47,504 nt of DNA from Methanobacteriota archaeon. Lineage in GTDB: Archaea > Thermoplasmatota > Thermoplasmata > RBG-16-68-12 > SOIM01. Positions 34,079 to 45,700 of this stretch are shown piece after piece (positions within the stretch are counted from its first letter, which is position 1; every line of letters begins with the position of its first letter). Made by a program: the position numbers and the translations under genes. Location of the stretch: contig CP070767.1 of NCBI GenBank assembly GCA_020345725.1, positions 1,782,276 through 1,829,779 of the forward strand, written 5' to 3'. Under the pieces are notes generated by a model. The model was not told where the DNA came from. It worked only from the letters and a program-made list of their open reading frames with translations, and made no database searches.

Positions 34079-35131
34079 ATGGCGTTAGATTTCACTTCCA
34101 CCGAGAAGATAGTCCTCTACGGCCTTGTGAAACATCCTACGCTCAATGACAGGCAACTGTCTGAACTAATCGGTGTGAAACCATCCACTACGACTGCCAT
34201 AAGGACACGTCTGAGGCAAAAAGATGTATTCCGCACAAAGCGGATACCAATCGCTCACAAGTTGGGATATGAACTGCTTGTGACCGTCTTTGGAAGTATG
34301 GAGCCTGGAGTGAAGGAGTCCGATAGGAAGAAGTTCTCGAAATGGATACGAGGAATCCCAGGTGTGTTCCTCTCCCTTGAATCATCGAACAGCATGTTCT
34401 TCACTGGCTACTTCAAGAACTTCAGCGAGTACAGGAGTGTTGCTGATGAAGCCTGGGAGAAGTTTGGCGAATCAACTCTATTCCAAACAGATAAGTGGTA
34501 TTGGCCCATGTTCAGCTTCGCAAGAAGCAAACTTGTGAACTTTTTTGACTACTCTTCGCCGCTGAGGTTCGCATTCAAGATAAAGGAGAAAGCAAAGGTT
34601 GAGCGAGAACGTGAGACGCTTTCCAAGGAAAGACTGACCAGAAAAGAGAGAACGGTTCTGCAGGGTCTGATCAACTATCCCGAGATATCTGACAAAGCCG
34701 TTGCCGAGAAGATAGGTGCATCCAGACAGGCCGTTGCGAGTATGAGAAAGAGATTCGAGGAAAAGGGAATCCTCCGTACAATCCGGATTGTGGACATGGA
34801 GAAGGTGGGCTATCAGATATTGGCTGTTGGAAGCATTCATTTTCAACCGAAAGCATCCCTAAATTCCAGGTGGATTGGAGTAGAGAGAACGGTGGAGACC
34901 GTTCCCATGATCCTGAATGTGGCAAGTAGTCCCGAGACAGTTGTGATGAGCTACATGAAGGACTATGAGGAATACCACGCGACCAAGAAGGAAGCATTGG
35001 AGTTCTATGCGAAGAGCGACTTCTACAGGGAGGAGCCTACCAGTTTGATATTCCCACTCTCAGATACTAAGATTACGAAAGATTTCGACTTCTCTAGATT
35101 CATGGAGAGATTCGTTCAAGAAGAAGACTAG
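34079..35131 (+). CDS. double winged-HTH (Lrp/AsnC-like) transcriptional regulator, paralog 2
   Basis: Also exactly 350 aa and collinear with 32890..33942 along the whole length, with long identical runs (VLYGLVKHPTLNDR, IGVKPSTTTAIR, GYFKNFSEYR, IGASRQAV, MRKRFE, FPLSDT, KDFDF). Confidence 0.65.
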   Translation: MALDFTSTEKIVLYGLVKHPTLNDRQLSELIGVKPSTTTAIRTRLRQKDVFRTKRIPIAHKLGYELLVTVFGSMEPGVKESDRKKFSKWIRGIPGVFLSLESSNSMFFTGYFKNFSEYRSVADEAWEKFGESTLFQTDKWYWPMFSFARSKLVNFFDYSSPLRFAFKIKEKAKVERERETLSKERLTRKERTVLQGLINYPEISDKAVAEKIGASRQAVASMRKRFEEKGILRTIRIVDMEKVGYQILAVGSIHFQPKASLNSRWIGVERTVETVPMILNVASSPETVVMSYMKDYEEYHATKKEALEFYAKSDFYREEPTSLIFPLSDTKITKDFDFSRFMERFVQEED

Positions 35132-38100
35132 GATAGCGTGTCGATGACAGAATCCACCTCTCTCTCCAGGAGTTTCAGTTGATTGGAGTCCAGGGTCGCG
35201 GGATTCACGTTCACTATCATCGTGGATTTGTTCATAGCAACCAAATCTCTGACGGACTGTAAAAGCCGAAGAACGATTATGAAGTTGTTGTTTGTGATCA
35301 GGTACTCCAGACCATCAAGTAGAACTACTCCACCAGTATCCGTCACGAATTTCTCCAGAGAGAGGCTGAGCTTCTCAAGATCCTTAGGTCTTACTGACTC
35401 CTCCTTCCCGATGTTGGATAACCATAGCAGGGTGGAATCGCCCATATCATGCATCTCAGTGACCTTATCTGGATATGTCCTTGTCACGCAAAGGCCTGGT
35501 CTGCCAGATTTCACCGTCGTGAGGAACATGTCGAATGCCCTCTCCGCCCTTTCTTCCTTGACCAAGTAGATGTGGGACGTTTCAAGTGCAACCTTCCCGA
35601 TCTCCTCCTCGAACGGTGGGACCTCAATCGCTTCCTCTGCTCCTACTTCGGCTTCGGAAATGGGTTCCTCTTCAGGGGCCTCCGCTTCTTCCTCGGTGAT
35701 GAAGACTGTACCGCACTGAGTACAATGAGTCGCATCTGCATTAGCTGGAGCATTGCAGAGGGGACAGACGAGTTCTTCCAGCCACTCCTCAAAGTAGACA
35801 GATATCTTCCGTGCCAGAGGAACGGTTATGCCCTCAATCTTAAGAAGCTCCTCTTCGGATGTGTTCGCCAGTGTATCCAGATCATAACCCAAGTTATTGA
35901 GCATCCTGGCTTTCTCCAGACCCAACCCGGGGATCTGCATTATCTCTTTCACCGCTTCCGAAATCTCTTCCTCTTCCTCCTTCTCAACCAGAGCAGAACC
36001 GCAACTATCGCATTCCTCAGCATCCAATGGAACCTGTGCTCCGCAACTGGGACACGCCTGCATCTCAGGCAGTAGAGAAGCACCGCAGCGATGACATTCT
36101 GTCGTTCCCATCTCGAGCTCTATCTCGCACACCGGGCACGTCATCTTCTCCTCGGCCCTCAGCTCTTCGGGCTGATCGAAGAATCTCCTAATCTTCCTGG
36201 CCTCGATCTCGTCAATCCCTTCAACTTGAACAAGCTCATCTATTGCCGCTTGCTGCAGTGAAAGTGGGCTGGCGTAACCAGCGTCAAAGAGAGACATTGC
36301 CTCCTTCTCATCTATTCCCGGAATGTTGGTGAATGCATCAATGGTCTGTTTCATGTAGAGCGGAGTGATAGCCAATCCTATGACCTCGCCTTCCACATTC
36401 CATTCCACTATGTACTCCTCAGTGAGCTCTTCCGGCACAAACTCAAAGCTCCTTGACCGAGTCTCAGTGGAAATGTAGTCCTCCCATTCCTCTAGCATCT
36501 TGGTGAGCTCCACCTTGACTTTGACCTGGGTTCTTATGAAATCCTCCACGTCCAGATCTATCTCCTTCCTCATCTGCTGGATTCTTCGCACGATTTCTCT
36601 CGAGAACCCCTCTGCCTTGATTTCTGGGGTTATTTCCATATCGATGTACAGGTCTCCTTGTTCAAAACCGATGCTAACCACATGCTCTGGGAGCCTTTCC
36701 GAGAATTCGACCATATCAGGTTCGATACGTATGACCTGGCCCTCTATGCCTATCTTGTAGACCCCTTTGTCGATGGCCTCTTTGACCTCATCGACGGGGC
36801 GACTTTCCAGCATAGTGGCAATCTTGCTCCACCACTGCTTGTAGACCCGTCCAATTGCTTCCACCTTCGGGCGGACGTTGAGGACCATACCATCCCAAGC
36901 CTCTCCAGGCCAAAGAACCTCGATCTCCTTGCTGTTCGTCTGGTCCATCAGGATTTCTTTCAGAGCCTCGACCGTCTTGGCCGTCTCTTCATCGTTAGCC
37001 TTCAAGACAATCTTCTTCACTGGCCATCGGAGCTTCATTCCCACCTTCTGCCTGGCCTTGGACACGAGCTCCACCAGTTCCTGGACGAGCGTCATTCTTT
37101 GTTCCAGTCTCTTATCTATCAATGACTCATCATAGGACGGCCAATCACACATGTGGACGGATAGCAATTCCGCGTCAAGGGATTGGTACATGGACTCCGA
37201 GATGTGGGGGGTCAGTGGAGCCAACACCTTTGCGATTGTGAGAAGCGATTCGTGCAGTGCCTTGTATGCACCGAACTTCTCTCTGGCATCGCCTTCAATC
37301 CAAGTTCTGTTGCGTATAAGCTTGATGTACCATCTGGATAGATCGTTAAGAATGAATTCTTCTACCGTTCTGCAGGCCTTGTGGATATTGAAGTCTTCAA
37401 TCTCGTTCTCGACCTTTGCCTTCAGTCCCTCTGTCTTCGAGAGCAGCCAATGATCTTCGGGTCTCATGCTTCCCGATAGTGAATCGATGGTCCAACTCGT
37501 GGGGTCGAACCCGTCCATTGCCATGTAGAGGGATCCGAACCTGTGAACATTCCAAAGGATGTTGAGTGTGCGGTTGGATGTACGGACATCCTCTTTGTTG
37601 AAATTCAGGTCTTCCCAGGGTGGATTGGTCTTCAGAAGGTAGAATCGCAGGGAATCCGCCCCGAACTCTTGAATGACATCGAAGGGGTCCACCACATTGC
37701 CGAGACTTTTTGACATGGGCTGACCCTTCAAATCTAGGATCCATCCGTGCATCAGAACGGCCTTGTAGGGAGACTCATCAAATGCAATCGTACCTGCAAC
37801 CAGAAGCGAATAGAACCAGCCTCGTGTCTGATCATGAGCCTCGGTAATCCACCTGCAAGGCCACCATTCCTTGTACTCCTTCTTCTTGGAAGGGTATTCA
37901 AGCTGGGCCCACATGCACACGCCTGAATCGAACCATACGTCCAGAACGTCGGGTGTTCTTCTCATCTCCGCACCGCATTCCTGGCAGTTGAAGGTGACAC
38001 TATCAATCCAGGGGCGGTGAAGGTCCATGTCATCGGTGTAGTTGTTCCCTTTGGAAAGGTCCTTGACCGAACCCACAATCAGTCTCTCCCCGCATTCACA

Positions 38101-39516
38101 ATCCCAGACCGGGACAGGTATGCCCCAATACCGCTGGCGTGAGATGCACCAGTCCCTGGCATTCTCTACCCAGTTCTTCTGCCTCGAGCTTCCTGCCCAA
38201 TCGGGGGTCCACTTGACCTTTTCCACTTCCTCAAGCATTATGTCCCGCACTTCAGTTGCTCTTATGAACCACTGGATTGAGGCCCGGTAGATAATTGGAG
38301 ATTTGCATCTCCAGCAGTGACCGTATCTGTGAGAGATCTTGCCATCATGAAAGAGCCACCTCTCCTTTCTAAGGTCGTCCATGATGAGACTGTTCGCTTC
38401 CCGGACGTGCTTGCCGAAATACTCTCCAGCATCTTCCGTGAAGTATCCACCTTCGTCCACGGGACAGAAGGGGGGAATCCCGTGTTCCTCGCCGACTTCG
38501 AAATCTTCCGGACCGTGTCCCGGCGCGATATGTACTACTCCTGTGTTCTCCTCGGTCACTATGTCCGAAGCAATGACTTTGTGAATCCACTCCCCCGTGA
38601 GCTGATTGTGATATGGGACCTTGGATGTCAGTGGATGGAAGTACTCCCAACCCACCAAGTCCGTTCCTTTCTTAATGTCAATTATCCTGAAATCCGTAGC
38701 ACCCACAAGAGAGGCCACCTCTTCCGCCCTATCCTTCATGAGCCAGAGGATCTCGTTCCTGTCCTCTATTGTCATCTCCACCTTAGCATACTCGAAATCC
38801 GGATGCACGGCAACAGCCATGTTCGCCGGCAAAGTCCAGGGCGTGGTTGTCCATATCAGAATGGCCTCTCCACCCCGTCCCTTCAGGAGGAACCTGACAA
38901 AGATGGAGTAGTCCTCCACATCTTCATATTCGATCTCGGCCTCAGCCAAGGCGGTCTCGCATCTGGCACACCAGGTAAGAACTCTAGTGTACTGTGTCAG
39001 AAGGTTCTTCTCATGGGCCTTCTTCAAGGTCCACCATGCCGCCTCGATGTAGCTGTTCCTTATCGTCAGGTAAGGATTGTCCCAGTCCATCCACACGCCA
39101 AGTGATGCGAACTGAGAGGTCATCCTGCCCTGGAGCTCGGAGGCAAATTCCCTGCAACTATTCACAAAGGACTCTATTCCGACCAGTTCCTCTATCTGCT
39201 TCTTATTGACAATGCTCAGCTTCTTCTCCACCTTGACCTCAATTGGGAGGCCGTGCATGTCAAAACCTGGCTGATCTCTCACGTTGAGACCTTGCATCCT
39301 CCTGTACCGGACTATCACATCCTTCAGGATTTTGTTGTAGGCAGTTCCCATGTGGATGGAGCCAGTTGTGTATGGTGGTCCGTCCACGAAGTAGTACTCC
39401 TTCCCTCTCTCTCTGTGAGATTTCGTCTTCTCATAGGCCCTTGAGAGCTTCCAAAAGTTTTGCACCTTTTTCTCCAATTCAACTGGAGAATACTCTTTCT
39501 CGGCTTGCTTTATCAT
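35128..39516 (-). CDS. ileS: isoleucyl-tRNA synthetase fused to a C-terminal HhH / zinc-ribbon / DUF835-like extension
   Basis: Start at ATG 39516 (GGGGGAGGATTGCG upstream). The track ORF runs on to 39744 across a tRNA gene, so that part is spurious. HIGH-type PPYTTGSIHMGTAYNK, KMSKS-type GQPMSKSLGN, the CP1 editing region, and the archaeal-type C-terminal domain. Then ~410 extra residues follow with no stop. Confidence 0.92.
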   Translation of the reverse strand: MIKQAEKEYSPVELEKKVQNFWKLSRAYEKTKSHRERGKEYYFVDGPPYTTGSIHMGTAYNKILKDVIVRYRRMQGLNVRDQPGFDMHGLPIEVKVEKKLSIVNKKQIEELVGIESFVNSCREFASELQGRMTSQFASLGVWMDWDNPYLTIRNSYIEAAWWTLKKAHEKNLLTQYTRVLTWCARCETALAEAEIEYEDVEDYSIFVRFLLKGRGGEAILIWTTTPWTLPANMAVAVHPDFEYAKVEMTIEDRNEILWLMKDRAEEVASLVGATDFRIIDIKKGTDLVGWEYFHPLTSKVPYHNQLTGEWIHKVIASDIVTEENTGVVHIAPGHGPEDFEVGEEHGIPPFCPVDEGGYFTEDAGEYFGKHVREANSLIMDDLRKERWLFHDGKISHRYGHCWRCKSPIIYRASIQWFIRATEVRDIMLEEVEKVKWTPDWAGSSRQKNWVENARDWCISRQRYWGIPVPVWDCECGERLIVGSVKDLSKGNNYTDDMDLHRPWIDSVTFNCQECGAEMRRTPDVLDVWFDSGVCMWAQLEYPSKKKEYKEWWPCRWITEAHDQTRGWFYSLLVAGTIAFDESPYKAVLMHGWILDLKGQPMSKSLGNVVDPFDVIQEFGADSLRFYLLKTNPPWEDLNFNKEDVRTSNRTLNILWNVHRFGSLYMAMDGFDPTSWTIDSLSGSMRPEDHWLLSKTEGLKAKVENEIEDFNIHKACRTVEEFILNDLSRWYIKLIRNRTWIEGDAREKFGAYKALHESLLTIAKVLAPLTPHISESMYQSLDAELLSVHMCDWPSYDESLIDKRLEQRMTLVQELVELVSKARQKVGMKLRWPVKKIVLKANDEETAKTVEALKEILMDQTNSKEIEVLWPGEAWDGMVLNVRPKVEAIGRVYKQWWSKIATMLESRPVDEVKEAIDKGVYKIGIEGQVIRIEPDMVEFSERLPEHVVSIGFEQGDLYIDMEITPEIKAEGFSREIVRRIQQMRKEIDLDVEDFIRTQVKVKVELTKMLEEWEDYISTETRSRSFEFVPEELTEEYIVEWNVEGEVIGLAITPLYMKQTIDAFTNIPGIDEKEAMSLFDAGYASPLSLQQAAIDELVQVEGIDEIEARKIRRFFDQPEELRAEEKMTCPVCEIELEMGTTECHRCGASLLPEMQACPSCGAQVPLDAEECDSCGSALVEKEEEEEISEAVKEIMQIPGLGLEKARMLNNLGYDLDTLANTSEEELLKIEGITVPLARKISVYFEEWLEELVCPLCNAPANADATHCTQCGTVFITEEEAEAPEEEPISEAEVGAEEAIEVPPFEEEIGKVALETSHIYLVKEERAERAFDMFLTTVKSGRPGLCVTRTYPDKVTEMHDMGDSTLLWLSNIGKEESVRPKDLEKLSLSLEKFVTDTGGVVLLDGLEYLITNNNFIIVLRLLQSVRDLVAMNKSTMIVNVNPATLDSNQLKLLEREVDSVIDTLS

Positions 39517-39607
39517 CGCAATCCTCCCCCTGGAGGTAAACCGGTGAGCCGCGAATTTGTCATCATCGCAACCCAGAGGTAGGACAGCGGTATGCTCAAT
39601 TTGACTT

Positions 39608-39612
39608 AAAAA
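39608..39612 (-). terminator. oligo-T tract downstream of tRNA-His
   Basis: The minus strand reads GGAAAGATTTTTAAG about 19 nt after the tRNA 3' end. Archaeal terminators are typically oligo-T runs. Confidence 0.3.
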
Positions 39613-39630
39613 TCTTTCCGACGATAGGAG

Positions 39631-39735
39631 GGCCGGGACCGAGAATTCCAACGTCATGGTGCGCCCAAGACGATTTTGAACTCGGGTCAAGGGATCCACA
39701 GTCCCTGAGGATAACCCAGCTACCCCACCCCGGCC
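39631..39735 (-). tRNA. tRNA-His (anticodon GTG) with a ~30-nt intron in the T-loop
   Basis: Hand fold of the minus strand.
- Acceptor: G-1 (39735), then GCCGGGG paired with TCCCGGC (39638-39632), and discriminator C73 (39631) opposite G-1.
- D-arm: U8, D-stem GGG/CCT, and a D-loop with A14, G18 G19 and A21.
- Anticodon arm: AGGGA-CTGTGGA-TCCCT, anticodon at 39699-39697.
- Variable loop: TGAC.
- T-arm: T-stem CCGAG (39685-39681) / CTCGG (39643-39639), enclosing 37 nt. These begin TTCAA and contain a stable hairpin, CGTCTTGG-GCGCA-CCATGACG.
The 105-nt gene equals a 75-nt tRNA plus 30 nt. Confidence 0.8.
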
Positions 39736-39757
39736 GCGGGACAAATAACCCCTTCAT

Positions 39758-39765
39758 GGATAAAG
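39758..39765 (-). promoter_or_regulatory. TATA-like box for tRNA-His
   Basis: The minus strand reads CTTTATCC, centred about 26 nt upstream of G-1. Confidence 0.35.
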
Positions 39766-39793
39766 AGTTTTTCTCAGAATGAAAGAGAGGAAT

Positions 39794-42700
39794 CTATGAT
39801 TCTGCTTCAGCCAATTCCTTGAGGTAGATCACAATCTCTTCATCACCAAGCTGCAACGCAAGTGAGAAAGCGTCCTCGTCTCCCTCCCAGTCCACAGGAC
39901 GGTACTTGAAAGAAGTGCATCGGACTTCTGTGATTATGTCGTCCATCCAGTCCTCTAGAAGAGCCTTCAGCTCATCACTGATGCAAAGCCTGATCTCCAC
40001 GGGAGTCTCTTCCTCAAGACCTGCCTCTCGCTTGGTATTTGCAATCTCCTTAATGATCTCGCCTGCAACTCCCTCGGCCCATAGTTCCTCGGTCTGCCTC
40101 TTGTCCACCCAGACCTTCCCCTTATCAAACTCGTACTCGGCCACACGCTCAGGAACGGATATCTCATAGGACACCATTGTGGAATCGAGGATGACCTGTT
40201 GACCCTCTATCCCAACTGCATAGCTACCTTTGTCAAGTCCAGATTTTATCTTCCACGGGGATTGGGAATTGAGCAGCATCTCGATCTTCCTGCTCCACTG
40301 AGGATACTTCTCCTTGATCTTGTCGCTATTGACGGTTATCTCCAGGTCCAGTCCATCCCAATCTTCACCTGGCCCTAGAACTACCAGTTCCTTGGTCCTC
40401 AAGTGGTCCTGTAGCACTCTCTTGAAGTCGGAAATCATTGTGGCGGAGCTGTCGTCTACCGATTTTATCGCCACCAGCAAGAGGGGCATCTTCTTGTCTA
40501 GATCGATGTCCTTTCGTGCCTGAGATACGCACTGAACGATATCACTCAAGGTTGCTATGTGTCCTCTGAATTCTGGACTGTCGGCCAGATCACCCAGGTC
40601 CTCTATGAACTCTGGAGATAGCTGGACATCTGGAGAGACAACACCCACACCCAAGTCTCTTGGTGGGACACCATCGCCCATATCAGATATGAATTCCCAT
40701 GCAGTGTCCATATCTTCGGTTTCCACGACTTTCCTGGCTTCTTCGATAATCTGGTGCGCACCCTCCGCACCGAATGTGGCGGTAACGAGTGACGACTGCA
40801 GGGATTCAGTGATTGCTTCCTTCTTATCCGTCACAAATATGAGTTCCTTGACAAATTCGTCAATTCCCGACAGTTCGCTCATCAATCCGCTCCAGCTTTC
40901 CAGAATCTGTCCGAACTGATCTTCAATTCTGGCAATGACTTCCAGAACATGTAGGGGCAGTAACATCGGTTCCTGACCAACAACTACTGCTGCGACACTC
41001 ACATACTTCCCCCTTTCCAAGAGTATCTTGCTCTCACCGAAATCCAACCTCTTTAGGCCCACCTTCTCTTTACTTCGGAAGGAGTCCTGCACGAAATCCT
41101 GTACGACGGAGAGCATGCCACTGAAGACATCCTCATCAATCTCCTCACGATACTTCCTGGTCTCGTGGATTATCAATCTTCCATCCCTGTGAATAAGGAA
41201 AACGTCCTCAACGAGGTATGTCCCTTGGGATTCCACTGAGACATTCTTCAGGTCGTCCAGGCGATATTCCTTTTCATCGAAATACCTTTGATAGGAGATC
41301 TTCACATCAATGGGGATGTCCCCTTCCCTGGCAGGTTTCAAGCCGACCTCCACTTCCTTCTTCTCTTTGGCGTCTATGTGAGGTATCTCTTCCAGGCCTT
41401 TCACTTCGAACTCGCCTGAAAGGTCTATGTTTAGGTTCCTTGCAGCAATATTGCCTTCATTTGCTACCTCGAATGTGTATTTGTTCCACGCATCCGTCTG
41501 GAGACCTTTTCTCGGCAACTGCAACTTGATGTCCGGAACCTTGCCCTTGAGATAATCTCCAATCTTCTTGGTAGCTGAACTCTCTGCCCTCTCAATGATG
41601 GTCCTGAGATTCTCAACATCCTCCGGAGCCAACTGTTGGGCATCCCCGAGTATCTTCTCTGCATCGGTAACCTCTATCCCAATCGATCTTGCTCTTTCGA
41701 CCATGTCGCGAACCGAATCCAAGTATCCATCCACCTCAGTTGCAGATAGGAGGTTGCGAGCTTCCACAAGGAGCTTACCAATCTCTTCAAGCGAATCCTG
41801 TGCTGCTTTGTCATCTCCCTTGTCCAAAGCCTCTTCCGCCTGACTGATCTTCTGCTCAACCTCGGCCACATCGATGCCCAAATCCTTCGCCCTTTTAGTC
41901 ATCTGGTCGAACTCGCTCAGCTTTGTCTTGAGGACTTCCGAGGTCAGACTCTCCTCAGTCTTCTTCATCGACTCCCGGAACAACTCCAGATACTTTTCGG
42001 CAGATTCAAAGTCGTCAACCAATCTGGCATCTCTGGCCTTCATCATCAGTTCCCCAGCTTCGCCAGTATCGAAGCCTTGGTTCTGGAGTCTTGTCATGAG
42101 TTCCTTTGCCTTGTCCAGTTGGGTCGCAATTTCGAGTTCTAGTTTCTTGGACTTGGCATCTCCCACGACCCTGTCTATCTTCCTTACTATCGAGTTCACT
42201 TCCCTGGCATCGAACTCTTCGGCTGCTTTGTCTGCATCATCCAACATCAGCTCGGCCTCGTCGATCTCCAAGCCTTCTTTGATGGCTTCCTTGATGGAAT
42301 TCTGAGCCTGCACCAGGGCGTTCTCCAACTGTCCCCGTATTCTGGCCTTTGATTTGGACGCGCTATCTGCAGCATCTTCCACGAACTTCCAAGCAGACGC
42401 ATAATCTTCCTCTTCCAGCAGTTTCTTGGCCTTGTGTAACAGGTCCTGGGCCTGAGAGACATCCGCACCTGCTGCCTGAGCCTCCCTCAGCATTTGGAGC
42501 GTGGACGTTATGACGCTCTCTTCCAGTTCTCCGATGTCCGCCTCTTCATCATCGCTCACGAATATAATCTTCTTGACGATTTCCTCGACACCTTCCATCT
42601 CGCCCAACAGCCCGCTCCAGTTATCCAGCACATCAGCGTACTTCTCTTCGATCTCTTTGACAATCTCGGCCATATAAAGGGGAAGTAGGGAGGGTTCATC

Positions 42701-45700
42701 TCCGGTGAGAACGGTTGCTAGATAGATGTAAAAGCCTCTTTCAATCACTATCTTGTTGTCGCCGAAATCCAGTCTACTGAGGCTCGTGCTCGACCTAGTC
42801 TGAAAAGAGTCTCTGACGAACTCCTGCATCACAGTCAGCATTCCACTGAAAATGTCATCGTCCACATCCTCTCTGAATTCCCGCGTTTCATGAAGAATCA
42901 GCCTTCCGTCATTGTGAACCAGGAAGACGTCATCCACCAGATAGGTGCCCAGTCTGCTGATGTTCAGAGTGGCATCATCTTTTGATTCGAAATTGGTCTC
43001 GTCAAATGGTCTTTTGAAGGAAACCTTAACATCCACAGGAAGCTCACCGTCCTGTCTGGGTTTGAGACCCACCTCCATCTTCTTCTTCTCCTGTGGAAGT
43101 AGACTGGAAATCTTCCTGAGTCCTTTGACCTCGAAGTCTCCCTTGAGGCTTACGTTCACGTCCTCTGCAGTTGTGTTCCCTTCGTTGGTCACTTCAAGAG
43201 TGTATTTGTTCCAGACATCTGATTGGACAGCTCCAACAGGAAGATTGACCATGATCTTTGGATATTTGCCGCGAAGGAACTGCTCGACACGACCGCGAGC
43301 CAGATCTTCCGATTGCTCTATCAACCTCAGAGCGCTTTCATAGTCATGTTCTGCGAAACTCTCCTGGGCAGTCCGGAGCATGTCCTGCAGCTCTTCCGCC
43401 CCCATTCCTGCCTCATCCGATTTTTCAATCAAACGTGTGATCATCTTGCTCTTCTCAACGAATTGCTGGATGAGCTTCTTGGATCTGGATTCCCCGAGCA
43501 TCTCCTTTGCGGTATCGGTGAGCATGGTGACTATTCCATAGTCCTCGGTTTCGTACGCGTCCTCGGCTTTCTTAAAGACGATTTCCGCTTCAGCGATTTC
43601 CCCGAGTCCACTGGTCTTTGCTTCTCCAATCATAATCTGGACTTCTTCCATCTCTCTCCTTGCCCTGTCGCTCAAGAATAACTTCTCGGCCTCAATCAAT
43701 GATCCTCTGGCCATTTCAGCCAGATTATTGAATTTGGAGTATTCCTTTGTATCAATTGCTGCACTCGCCTCTTCAATAAGATCCTCTGCTTCATCCACAT
43801 GTGCTCCGGTGGACCTTGCCAGTTCGATCCCTTTGATGATCGAACCTATGTTCTCCTTTGCTTTCCTCTCAATCAACTTCTCGGTTTCTTCCAGCACTTT
43901 CTGTGCCATTCTTGCGTATTCGATAGATGCTTGGTACTTCCCCTCATCGAAGTAGGTCTTGGCAGTGTGGAGCATTTCCTCAACTTGAGGAGCGGACACA
44001 CCAATCTCCTTCATCCTGTCCAATGAAGATTCCAATGTGTGAATGAATTCCTCCGACCCTTCTCTCAAGGAGGCCATTATTTCCTGCCCGAGCTCCTCAA
44101 TCGTAATGACCGCTTTCTCAGCCTCTTTGAGCTTGCCTTGTTCTGTGGCAGTCTCGGCCTCTGAGAGAAGCTTTTCGGCCTCCGAGACATCTATGTTGGC
44201 CTTCCTAGCGTCATCCAAAAGAAGTCTGACCTTTCCGAGCCTATCCTCTATCTCCTTTCTCCTGGCTATTGCTTCCTCCGGCACCCGTCTCTCCACCATG
44301 CGGTGGGCCGCCTTTGCCCTCTCTATGGATTCCAAGAAACTCTCTTCGCCCAGTAGGTTCTCGGCCGCAAGCAAAGTCTCTTCAACGTCTTCTATGTCGA
44401 ACCCATGAGTCCTGGCATGCATCATAGAGGACTTCGCTTTGAGAAGCAAGTTTTTCGCTCTCTTCTTGGCGAGCCTCACAATCGATTCGAATCTCTCTAC
44501 TTCCTCCATTAGGCCCTCTGCCCTTTCAATATCGCCACTCTCGAACGACCTTTCAATCTTCACCATCATTTCTTCAAGCTCGGACGTATCTTCTCCGTAT
44601 TCCGAGATATCCCTCACGAGATTCCTAAGTCGGAGTATGCGGCGCTGAATCCTATTCTTGCGCTCCTCCAACTCCCAAGCCTGCATGTCCTTCTCCAACA
44701 ATTCCTGAAGATCCCCGACCTTGTCGCTCATTATGGCCCTCTTGAAGTTCTTCAGAAGTTCTTTGGCTCCTACGAGTTCCTTCCCACCCTTGCTTGCCTT
44801 CTCGATAAGTGTTCCAACAGCCCCGACCAGTAGCTCTGTTTCTCTCTTCTTCCTTTCCCTTACGATCCATCTTCGGTTCCTCGTGACCAGGTTCTGCATC
44901 TTGGAGTACTTACCTTCACTCATCGCCTTACTGGCCTCTTCCAAAAGGTCTTCTCCGGCCGAGGTGTCCACACCCATCGATCTTAGTTCTTCCAGATCCA
45001 TGCGGACACTCTGTAGCTTGTCCTCCATCTTCTTCTTGAGCTTGGCATCGGATATCGCTTTCTTCAGACGCCGGGAGAGTTTCTGGACATCTGCGAATCT
45101 CTCGTCCAGAACGGCTTCTCTAGCCTCATTTAGCAACTCCCTCGCCCGAGTCACATCGAGTTCCAGCTTCTCAGACTTCGTGATCTGGTCCCGCATCTTG
45201 TCGATAACATCCTCCACTCTCTTCCTCTTCTTGGCTCGTCTGATTGCATTACGGATATTCTTGACATTCTCGGAAACCTCACCGAAATTTCGATCTTCCA
45301 GCGATGTCTGAGCGGCATGGAGGAACTCCATTGCTTCCGAGATATCCGCACCCATTTCGTTTGCCTGGTCGACGAAAGGAATGACGTTCCCAATCATTCT
45401 CTGGGAACGGAAGAACCTCTTCGCTGCCATCGTCTCCGTTCTTGCCTCTCGAACTAGACCCGGGATCTCTTGGAAGCTGGCTGACTTGAGTGCATTCTCA
45501 GCTTTTCCTATCAGCTCTGACGATACGGACACATCAGCTCCCTGGGCTTTTGCATCCTTTATGAGCGCTTTTGCATTCCTGATCAGAGTCCGCATCCTTT
45601 TCTCTTTCTTGGCATCTGCGGTTTTCTTAGTGCCCTGTTTTTCTGAAGCACTATCTTTGCTATCTGTCTCCGACCGAGATTTTGCACTCAATTTGATCAC
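39794..45700 (-). CDS. giant (1968 aa) cytoplasmic helical-repeat protein with duplicated Ig-like + alpha/beta modules and an IleRS-C-terminal-domain paralog
   Basis: One uninterrupted ORF with a GTG start and GGAGAC 10 nt upstream (an alternative ATG lies at codon 36). No signal peptide or TM segment was seen. Domain order is given in the findings. Confidence 0.85.
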   Translation of the reverse strand: MIKLSAKSRSETDSKDSASEKQGTKKTADAKKEKRMRTLIRNAKALIKDAKAQGADVSVSSELIGKAENALKSASFQEIPGLVREARTETMAAKRFFRSQRMIGNVIPFVDQANEMGADISEAMEFLHAAQTSLEDRNFGEVSENVKNIRNAIRRAKKRKRVEDVIDKMRDQITKSEKLELDVTRARELLNEAREAVLDERFADVQKLSRRLKKAISDAKLKKKMEDKLQSVRMDLEELRSMGVDTSAGEDLLEEASKAMSEGKYSKMQNLVTRNRRWIVRERKKRETELLVGAVGTLIEKASKGGKELVGAKELLKNFKRAIMSDKVGDLQELLEKDMQAWELEERKNRIQRRILRLRNLVRDISEYGEDTSELEEMMVKIERSFESGDIERAEGLMEEVERFESIVRLAKKRAKNLLLKAKSSMMHARTHGFDIEDVEETLLAAENLLGEESFLESIERAKAAHRMVERRVPEEAIARRKEIEDRLGKVRLLLDDARKANIDVSEAEKLLSEAETATEQGKLKEAEKAVITIEELGQEIMASLREGSEEFIHTLESSLDRMKEIGVSAPQVEEMLHTAKTYFDEGKYQASIEYARMAQKVLEETEKLIERKAKENIGSIIKGIELARSTGAHVDEAEDLIEEASAAIDTKEYSKFNNLAEMARGSLIEAEKLFLSDRARREMEEVQIMIGEAKTSGLGEIAEAEIVFKKAEDAYETEDYGIVTMLTDTAKEMLGESRSKKLIQQFVEKSKMITRLIEKSDEAGMGAEELQDMLRTAQESFAEHDYESALRLIEQSEDLARGRVEQFLRGKYPKIMVNLPVGAVQSDVWNKYTLEVTNEGNTTAEDVNVSLKGDFEVKGLRKISSLLPQEKKKMEVGLKPRQDGELPVDVKVSFKRPFDETNFESKDDATLNISRLGTYLVDDVFLVHNDGRLILHETREFREDVDDDIFSGMLTVMQEFVRDSFQTRSSTSLSRLDFGDNKIVIERGFYIYLATVLTGDEPSLLPLYMAEIVKEIEEKYADVLDNWSGLLGEMEGVEEIVKKIIFVSDDEEADIGELEESVITSTLQMLREAQAAGADVSQAQDLLHKAKKLLEEEDYASAWKFVEDAADSASKSKARIRGQLENALVQAQNSIKEAIKEGLEIDEAELMLDDADKAAEEFDAREVNSIVRKIDRVVGDAKSKKLELEIATQLDKAKELMTRLQNQGFDTGEAGELMMKARDARLVDDFESAEKYLELFRESMKKTEESLTSEVLKTKLSEFDQMTKRAKDLGIDVAEVEQKISQAEEALDKGDDKAAQDSLEEIGKLLVEARNLLSATEVDGYLDSVRDMVERARSIGIEVTDAEKILGDAQQLAPEDVENLRTIIERAESSATKKIGDYLKGKVPDIKLQLPRKGLQTDAWNKYTFEVANEGNIAARNLNIDLSGEFEVKGLEEIPHIDAKEKKEVEVGLKPAREGDIPIDVKISYQRYFDEKEYRLDDLKNVSVESQGTYLVEDVFLIHRDGRLIIHETRKYREEIDEDVFSGMLSVVQDFVQDSFRSKEKVGLKRLDFGESKILLERGKYVSVAAVVVGQEPMLLPLHVLEVIARIEDQFGQILESWSGLMSELSGIDEFVKELIFVTDKKEAITESLQSSLVTATFGAEGAHQIIEEARKVVETEDMDTAWEFISDMGDGVPPRDLGVGVVSPDVQLSPEFIEDLGDLADSPEFRGHIATLSDIVQCVSQARKDIDLDKKMPLLLVAIKSVDDSSATMISDFKRVLQDHLRTKELVVLGPGEDWDGLDLEITVNSDKIKEKYPQWSRKIEMLLNSQSPWKIKSGLDKGSYAVGIEGQQVILDSTMVSYEISVPERVAEYEFDKGKVWVDKRQTEELWAEGVAGEIIKEIANTKREAGLEEETPVEIRLCISDELKALLEDWMDDIITEVRCTSFKYRPVDWEGDEDAFSLALQLGDEEIVIYLKELAEAES
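40826..41545 (-). repeat. intragenic duplicated module B (aa 1386-1625 of the giant protein)
   Basis: Collinear with module A over ~240 aa, with shared blocks WNKYTFEV.NEGN, FEVKGL, EVGLKP, GTYLVEDVFLIHRDGRLIIHETR, DVFSGML, QDFVQDSF, RLDFGE and WSGL. Confidence 0.8.
42551..43270 (-). repeat. intragenic duplicated module A (aa 811-1050 of the giant protein)
   Basis: See module B. Roughly half or more of the residues are identical by eye. Confidence 0.8.

Follow-up and report, generated by a model that had tools for sequence, protein, structure and literature searches.

A tRNA-His gene with a probable protein-spliced T-loop intron at position 59/60 in Thermoplasmata

The tRNA-His gene and the predicted splice junction of its T-loop insert

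In the present study, we analyzed a 47,504-nt stretch of DNA from a Methanobacteriota archaeon (GTDB class Thermoplasmata; GenBank assembly GCA_020345725.1, contig CP070767.1, positions 1,782,276 to 1,829,779 of the forward strand), hereafter called the window. Its minus strand from 39735 to 39631 was read as a tRNA-His(GUG) gene with a 30-nt insert in the T-loop, and all of the tRNA-His hallmarks that an earlier sequence-only reading had listed for this locus were found on that strand. The acceptor stem comprised 7 bp, GCCGGGG (39734-39728) with UCCCGGC (39638-39632), including a G7-U66 pair, and a genome-encoded G-1 at 39735 stood opposite the discriminator C73 at 39631, as expected of an archaeal tRNA-His. 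U8, A14, G18G19, and A21 were present in the D-arm region, and the D-loop had two extra nucleotides. The 7-nt anticodon loop CUGUGGA (39701-39695) contained U33, the anticodon GTG at 39699-39697, and the purine G37, and the variable loop was 4 nt long. The T-stem halves CCGAG (39685-39681) and CTCGG (39643-39639), with the G53-C61 pair, were separated by 37 nt (39680-39644) instead of the normal 7, and this spacer opened with TTCAA, both of which had been described correctly before. After in-silico splicing, exon 1 (39675..39734, minus strand, 60 nt) runs from G1 to A59 and holds the acceptor 5' half, the D-arm, the anticodon arm, the T-stem 5' half, and T-loop positions 54-59 (UUCAAA), and exon 2 (39631..39644, minus strand) holds U60, the T-stem 3' half CUCGG, the acceptor 3' half UCCCGGC, and C73. 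CCA was not encoded; the bases after C73 were CUCC.

The locus had been called unlisted, and we checked this only in the sense of two detection tools: ARAGORN, whose intron option covers anticodon-loop introns only, reported 0 tRNA genes in the window, and an Rfam scan of the window at the gathering score gave 0 matches. Under permissive settings, the Rfam tRNA model matched 39734-39662 with 21.5 bits against a cut-off of 29, and the insert was misaligned as a false 3' half; a score below the cut-off was expected because of the 30-nt insert. When the insert (~30 nt) was removed in silico, ARAGORN called tRNA-His(gtg), and it did so for many nearby cut positions. The ARAGORN check that had been proposed thus confirmed the gene but did not fix the junction. 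These results indicated that the locus is a genuine tRNA-His gene. SnoRNA-like Rfam matches beside the locus (E 0.95-4.5) lay outside the tRNA, were weak, and were regarded as chance.

By a DNA search, the locus was detected in 39 of 41 related genomes. We fetched 60 loci, and 56 were parsed with a cloverleaf pattern that required G-1, which all 56 carried. Four loci (L130, L035, L052, and L073) did not fit and stand outside the counts; L035, L052, and L073 were intronless by eye, and L130 (genome G190, family f15) was intron-bearing by pattern match. The tRNA-His exons were near-invariant among the parsed loci. An insert of 28-37 nt was observed at exactly the same place in 45 of the 56, giving 37 distinct T-arm sequences, and the remaining 11 were intronless, with the T-loop TTCAAAT in every case.

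In the window, the T-loop and the insert formed a motif of the bulge-helix-bulge (BHB) type, in which two 3-nt bulges (AAA and AUU) lay on opposite strands with a 4-bp helix between them. The 5' strand of this central helix (39677..39680, minus strand) is U54 U55 C56 A57 of the future T-loop, which pairs with 39650-39647; the 3' strand UGGA (39647..39650, minus strand) lies within the intron and was assigned from the sequence and the alignment of relatives. The UUCA/UGGA pairs are U-A, U.G, C-G, and A-U. By geometry, the 5' bulge (39674..39676, minus strand) reads A58 A59/A, where the slash marks a predicted cut at 39675/39674, and AA/N was found in 32 of the 37 distinct sequences. The 3' bulge (39644..39646, minus strand) reads A U/U60, with a predicted cut at 39645/39644, and 3 unpaired nucleotides were present in the anchored parse of all 37. 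The motif was flanked by two helices, namely the 5-bp T-stem (h, 100% paired over the distinct sequences) and an inner helix (h', 8 positions, 87% paired), which was assigned by folding and covariation. The inner helix (39652..39672, minus strand) consists of CGUCUUGG (39672-39665), the loop GCGCA, and CCAUGACG (39659-39652), and it is preceded by a U.U mismatch at 39673/39651. The hairpin CGTCTTGG/CCATGACG that had been reported as 8 bp was thus present, with 7 pairs and one U.U mismatch rather than eight pairs. The T-arm with the intron folded at -17 kcal/mol, with z = -3.06 against shuffles. A further helix suggested earlier, GAGTTC/GAATTC, exists in the window sequence, but it competes with the T-stem and is not part of the splicing motif; its 3' half was absent in L113-L132, which are loci from another order.

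In both bulges, the archaeal splicing endonuclease cleaves behind the second nucleotide. Both bulge cuts agreed on the 7-nt loop UUCAAAU, and the junction was thus fixed at 59/60: exon 1 ends at A59 (39675), exon 2 starts at U60 (39644), and the 30-nt intron occupies 39645..39674 on the minus strand. The in-silico junction falls after the 60th nucleotide, which is standard position 59, given a D-loop with two extra nucleotides and a variable loop of 4 nt. The predicted spliced T-loop UUCAAAU is a canonical product and equals the loop of all 11 intronless orthologues parsed. Introns in 45 loci were homologous both in their position and in their shape, and that of the window was recovered with a length of 30 in a genome-wide trial (below). 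The sequence-only reading had held that 58/59, 59/60, and 60/61 could not be told apart by eye; the bulge geometry and the intronless loops decided for 59/60. It had also considered a relaxed BHB, whereas the motif is near-strict, neither textbook nor relaxed. We also weighed a C/D-box RNA within the intron but rejected it, since no pair of boxes could be seen and a length of 30 nt is insufficient.

Covariation and distribution in relatives

To describe the pairing in an alignment-free manner, we counted base pairs inward from the splice sites in the 37 distinct sequences (anchored count). The 8 inner-helix positions were paired in 87% of cells, compared with 36-49% when the partner was slid by 1-3 positions. 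With partners shuffled among sequences, the value was 51.5 ± 2.2%, and 0 of 1000 shuffles reached the observed one; the sequences are related, so shuffle counts overstate their independence, whereas the slid controls keep the relatedness and were equally clear. Each inner-helix position showed two to six standard pair types, and all 8 pairs changed on both sides. For the full BHB structure, scored on a MAFFT alignment of the 37 sequences, 91.3% of cells were paired versus 74.5 ± 1.1% in shuffles (0 of 500 reached the observed value) and 24-59% in slid controls, and the covariation score was 0.495 versus 0.181 in shuffles. RNAalifold, applied to the same alignment, predicted the T-stem and the inner helix unaided, with double-sided changes in 7 pairs. 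The central helix, which is constrained because one of its halves is exon, was 88.5% paired across the distinct sequences; at least three of its four pairs formed in 36 of 37 and all four in 21, and the third pair was C-G in all 37. The BHB fold, the relatives, and the covariation together supported the earlier proposal of a T-loop intron of the archaeal protein-spliced type in tRNA-His.

Subsequently, the distribution of the intron was assessed by pattern search. The intron pattern was found in 26 of the 79 genomes of the order, with 0 matches for a reversed-pattern control. By family, the intron form was present in 5/5 genomes of f1 as well as in the window's own genome, in 7/8 of f2, 1/1 of f5, and 12/14 of f7, and in 0/2 of f3, 0/44 of f4, and 0/4 of f6. 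The intronless pattern was found in 30 of the 79 (4/4 of f6, 2/2 of f3, and 24/44 of f4) and was absent from the 28 genomes of f1, f2, f5, and f7. A looser intron pattern matched 83 of 401 genomes sampled across the class, including 58/59 of f17 and 1/13 of f15; three f17 genomes are flagged as unpublished, and without them the counts were 80/398 for the class and 55/56 for f17. One of two intron-pattern matches in genome G249 (on C9) was a chance match and not a tRNA. Family f17, which belongs to an order other than that of the window's genome, carried a 31-33-nt form of the intron, compared with the 30-nt intron of the window, which has a different inner helix.

Among the named relatives, L001, L027, L037, L059, L061, and L078 were intron-bearing, and L052 (a metagenome-assembled genome (MAG) of Methanomethylophilaceae), L004, L035, and L073 were intronless. 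In several of them, tRNA-His lay directly upstream of ileS, as in the window. The intron-bearing loci L081 and L082 gave no Rfam tRNA match at the gathering score, and three of the four intronless loci scanned scored 48.8-55.3 bits. Eight secondary matches of the DNA search, fetched from seven related genomes, were tRNA-Arg(GCG) in seven cases and tRNA-Pro(UGG) in one. Since these are other tRNAs, the intron-bearing gene is the only tRNA-His seen in those genomes. The intron is of old origin and is conserved among several families of Thermoplasmata.

Further 59/60 introns, splicing machinery, and rival explanations

The assembly of the window's genome consists of 226 contigs joined by 100-N spacers (1.99 Mb, 49% G+C, 76% complete). 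In the genome-wide BHB trial, every perfect 3-4-3 site with flanking pairs on both strands (n = 106,151) was spliced in silico and submitted to ARAGORN. Two tRNAs became visible only after splicing, namely tRNA-His (intron length 30) and tRNA-Gly(UCC), and the recovery of tRNA-His among 106,151 candidate sites is more than chance. The trial required a perfect motif; it missed tRNA-Met and may have missed relaxed-motif introns at other positions. A second, T-loop-specific scan added tRNA-Met(CAU) and tRNA-Ser(UGA). The tRNA-Gly(UCC) gene (C1 1775798-1775931, plus strand), about 6 kb before the window start on a neighboring contig, contained two 29-nt introns, at 37/38 and 59/60, and the latter showed a perfect 3-4-3 motif with UUCG/CGAA and bulges AA/A and AC/U. 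The tRNA-Met(CAU) gene (C1 ~1651068-1651178, plus strand) contained a 37-nt intron at 59/60 with UUCG/CGAA and bulges AA/A and AA/U, which explains its partial 24.7-bit Rfam tRNA match. The tRNA-Ser(UGA) gene (C1 787698-787826, plus strand), which directly precedes tRNA-Leu(GAG) at 787833-787918, contained two introns, one of 15 nt in the anticodon loop (37/38) and one of 25 nt at 59/60. At least three further tRNAs with 59/60 introns besides tRNA-His were thus found in this genome, and the four introns shared one layout: UUCR with YGAA or UGGA, and bulges AA/A then AN/U.

No second tRNA-His was found in any scan (Rfam, ARAGORN, BHB trial, DNA search, T-loop scan) of the 76%-complete assembly, in which about 34 tRNAs were found in total. 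The earlier suggestion that this may be the only tRNA-His held as far as these scans and the secondary matches in relatives reach, and the locus is very probably the tRNA-His gene of its genome, in sole copy. ARAGORN also listed a second tRNA-Ser(tga) at 595761-595849, a tRNA-Ile(aat) (C1 588636-589550) whose 821-nt "intron" spans a 100-N spacer and is surely due to the joining of the contigs, and a tRNA-Leu(caa) (C1 1412182-1412366) with a 94-nt intron, which was not listed by Rfam.

The host encodes both enzymes expected for a BHB intron. The endonuclease is one 382-aa open reading frame (ORF; L111 625..1773) with two tRNA_int_endo (PF01974) units in one frame (85.8 and 78.4 bits), and the 76%-complete assembly contained no further PF01974 match. 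Residues 34-372 aligned to the fused two-unit EndA of M. kandleri (5x89, E 3e-39), followed by the A. fulgidus enzyme, and structural matches included PDB 1r0v, 2gjw, and 2ohc. The catalytic unit had no insertion relative to the M. kandleri enzyme. By sequence, the endonuclease is predicted to be of the α'2 type, with two tandem units in one polypeptide. An RtcB ligase was also encoded (603.5 bits).

Taken together, we regard the locus with high confidence as a working tRNA-His(GUG) gene that is interrupted at 59/60 by a 30-nt archaeal protein-spliced intron. The gene would be transcribed from its own promoter in the 58-nt gap upstream. In the precursor, U54-A57 would pair with UGGA near the 3' end of the intron, and the bulges AA/A and AU/U would flank the resulting 4-bp helix; with the T-stem on one side and the intron hairpin on the other, the sequence and its covariation show an hBHBh' motif. 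The single α'2-type endonuclease would cut both bulges, and RtcB would join the exons, the genes for both having been found. The product would have the 7-nt T-loop UUCAAAU, and only then could the T-loop/D-loop elbow form and the T-loop be modified. It is established that RNase P retains G-1 of tRNA-His and that CCA is added later, and the encoded G-1 would presumably be kept here in the same way, with CCA added afterwards.

Several observations weigh against this reading. None of the listed sequencing runs that contain this DNA is on record as RNA, and transcription and splicing are inferred from sequence. The unspliced gene scored 21.5 bits on the Rfam tRNA model, below the cut-off of 29, so the call rests on in-silico splicing, and one intronless orthologue, L099, was likewise not listed at the Rfam gathering score. 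The fourth pair of the central helix was A-U in 21 of the 37 distinct sequences and a mismatch in 16 (A57.G in 15, A57.A in 1), the mismatched loci being L092, L094, L101, L116, L118-L123, L125-L129, and L132 of families f7 and f17. The possible explanations are that a sheared pair is tolerated there or that the enzymes work on a central helix of 3 bp next to a 4-nt bulge. In addition, the minimum-energy fold favored a 5-bp central helix (A58-U39651), and that register, if cut, would leave an 8-nt loop; this and the U.U mismatch before h' are the reasons why the motif is called near-strict rather than textbook. A strict 3-4-3 motif is said to be needed by α4 and α'2 enzymes (PMC3239211). Finally, the 226-contig, 76%-complete assembly may hide a second tRNA-His.

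If such a copy decoded His, the gene of the window could be dead, with the 30-nt insertion as its lesion. The incomplete assembly, the total of only about 34 tRNAs, and the sub-threshold Rfam score of the unspliced gene fit this explanation. However, an insert of the same position and shape is kept in 26/79 genomes of the order and 83/401 of the class, its helix shows compensatory changes that are not expected from a decaying gene, and the exons are near-invariant. The secondary matches in relatives were other tRNAs, and an intronless tRNA-His was seen in 0 of the 28 genomes of f1, f2, f5, and f7, several of which are 92-97% complete. We therefore consider a dead gene very unlikely. It is slightly harder still to accept that the insert is retained and that the tRNA works with a 37-nt T-loop and an extra hairpin. 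What speaks for it is that the hairpin is stable. The T-loop/D-loop elbow is needed by all cytoplasmic elongator tRNAs, and the conserved fold, which ties up U54-A57 in a helix with the insert, is incompatible with it. Moreover, the endonuclease signal consists of exactly such a pair of 3-nt bulges with four base pairs in between, the enzyme and ligase genes are present, and the intronless orthologues have a normal loop.

The stretch could also be protein-coding, with an incidental tRNA-like fold. A listed ORF (35128..39744, minus strand, 1538 aa, TTG start) overlaps tRNA-His, and its frame, open from 39744, would then provide a real N-terminal extension of IleRS. However, the match to the IleRS domain begins at residue 94 of the ORF (profile position 2), and an ATG with GGAGG just upstream lies at 39516. 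The relatives keep the RNA pairs and not the frame, which is shifted by the intron lengths of 28-37 nt, and the order of tRNA-His before ileS also holds in intronless relatives such as L004. This explanation is barely conceivable. From the domain start and the start-codon context, ATG 39516 is likely the true start of ileS (35128..39516, minus strand), and 39517-39744 appears to be a spurious 5' extension, as the sequence-only reading had suspected.

Position 59/60 is among the non-canonical intron positions listed for Crenarchaeota, and euryarchaeal tRNA genes are said there to carry one intron only, at the canonical position (PMC4090602). The two-unit single-chain architecture is termed α'2 and treated as strict (PMC3239211, PMC5829648, PMC4033280), and the usual statement for Euryarchaeota with α4 or α'2 endonucleases is that introns occur only at 37/38 (PMC4090602, PMC4033280, PMC5829648). 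Crenarchaeota and Thaumarchaeota are the phyla named as known to have multiple non-canonical introns, a kind of intron that tRNAscan-SE 2.0 was designed to find (PMC8450103). A term search of the text of the Methanomassiliicoccales paper by Borrel et al. 2014 returned no mention of tRNA introns (PMC4153887). No description of a Thermoplasmata T-loop intron was found in the literature searched, in which the supplementary per-genome intron tables of PMC8450103 were not opened, and curated tRNA sets may already contain Thermoplasmata 59/60 introns.

A close likeness was to ARMAN-2 (Ca. Micrarchaeum acidiphilum), where protein-spliced introns cut by an ε2 enzyme share the 59/60 insertion point; the tRNA-Pro(GGG) intron has a strict hBHBh' motif and that of tRNA-Cys(GCA) a relaxed motif (PMC3239211). 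The ε2 enzyme of ARMAN-2 has three units and broad specificity, and 56% of the tRNA genes are disrupted, at many positions (PMC3239211). In contrast, the present genome has a two-unit single-chain enzyme, the host gene is tRNA-His, and all four off-position introns found lie at 59/60. In Thermoproteales and other Crenarchaeota, a BHB intron is likewise transplanted to a non-anticodon position, sometimes beside a 37/38 intron, a combination seen here in tRNA-Gly(UCC) and tRNA-Ser(UGA); those lineages differ in having (αβ)2 enzymes, often relaxed motifs, and introns at many positions. The canonical euryarchaeal 37/38 BHB introns cut by α'2 enzymes (A. fulgidus, T. acidophilum) share the enzyme architecture and the 3-4-3 geometry with flanking helices. 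They differ in position: in the window, the T-loop (UUCA) takes the place of the anticodon loop as exon half of the central helix, and the T-stem that of the anticodon stem as outer helix. The kind of intron is thus known from Thermoproteales and ARMAN-2, and what is new is the lineage and how far the intron is conserved. As 59/60 introns occur in a sizeable set of Thermoplasmata, the 37/38-only rule for Euryarchaeota with α4 or α'2 enzymes does not hold there.

With a near-strict motif at an off-canonical position, the question of "where" becomes distinct from that of "how relaxed" in the co-evolution that has been proposed for introns and enzyme. The introns also provide natural substrates for asking whether a two-unit enzyme without a specificity loop can cut a T-loop BHB and whether the A.G variant of the central helix (15/37) is tolerated. 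For annotation, default ARAGORN and the Rfam tRNA model miss the only tRNA-His seen, such genomes would look as if they had no tRNA-His, and an ileS call can easily be carried too far along its open frame, over the tRNA. More tentatively, and with considerable doubt, 59/60 might be a self-templating landing site that is usable by a strict α'2 enzyme, with introns long kept across much of Thermoplasmata and maintained by selection. If so, the T-loop UUCR would supply half of the central helix and the T-stem the outer helix, such that any tRNA could host a strict BHB intron; the long-kept introns would include that of tRNA-His, present in five or more families from two or more orders, and those of tRNA-Gly, tRNA-Met, and tRNA-Ser in the window's genome. 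Such introns may, speculatively, gate T-loop modification or elbow formation, or break up 3'-half attachment sites of integrating elements.

Flanking DNA and neighboring genes

A promoter-like stretch (39758..39773, minus strand), which reads GAAAAA-CTC-TTTAT, was found in the 58-nt gap that follows the stop of a 1968-aa ORF. It comprises a purine-rich GAAAAA (39773-39768), resembling a B recognition element (BRE), and a TATA-like TTTAT (39764-39760), and it is centered about 27 nt upstream of G-1. Five relatives, representing 4 families, showed an equivalent A-run with a TTTAT, TATAT, TTTAA, or ATATA box at this distance. Judged by the promoter consensus, the element is likely a BRE/TATA promoter. 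On the other side of the gene, the T-run ATTTTTAA (39608..39612, minus strand) lies 19-23 nt after C73 and was kept in genomes G001 and G002; it may be the terminator of the tRNA transcript, the TATA box of ileS, or both.

The closest named relative of the IleRS, with 91% identity, was from a "Methanomassiliicoccales archaeon" MAG, and the other 79 relatives among the matches listed showed 46-60% identity and were nearly all from Thermoplasmata, Methanomassiliicoccales, or Methanomethylophilaceae MAGs. The sequence-only reading had called the intron noteworthy if the genome were Thermoplasmatota-like, and the IleRS relatives agree with such a placement. The C-terminal part of ileS (35128-36366, minus strand) encodes an extension of about 400 aa with HHH_5, double zinc ribbon, HHH_2, and DUF835 in one frame. 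Long IleRS frames (1267-1544 aa, stop to stop) were observed in L001-L004, L007, L013, L016, and L037, and shorter ones (~985-1139 aa) in L027, L052, L059, L061, and L078. The 1968-aa ORF (39794-45700, minus strand), which ends 58 nt upstream of tRNA-His, gave only CARDB and weak Ig-like Pfam matches at residues ~824-903 and probably encodes a large surface protein.

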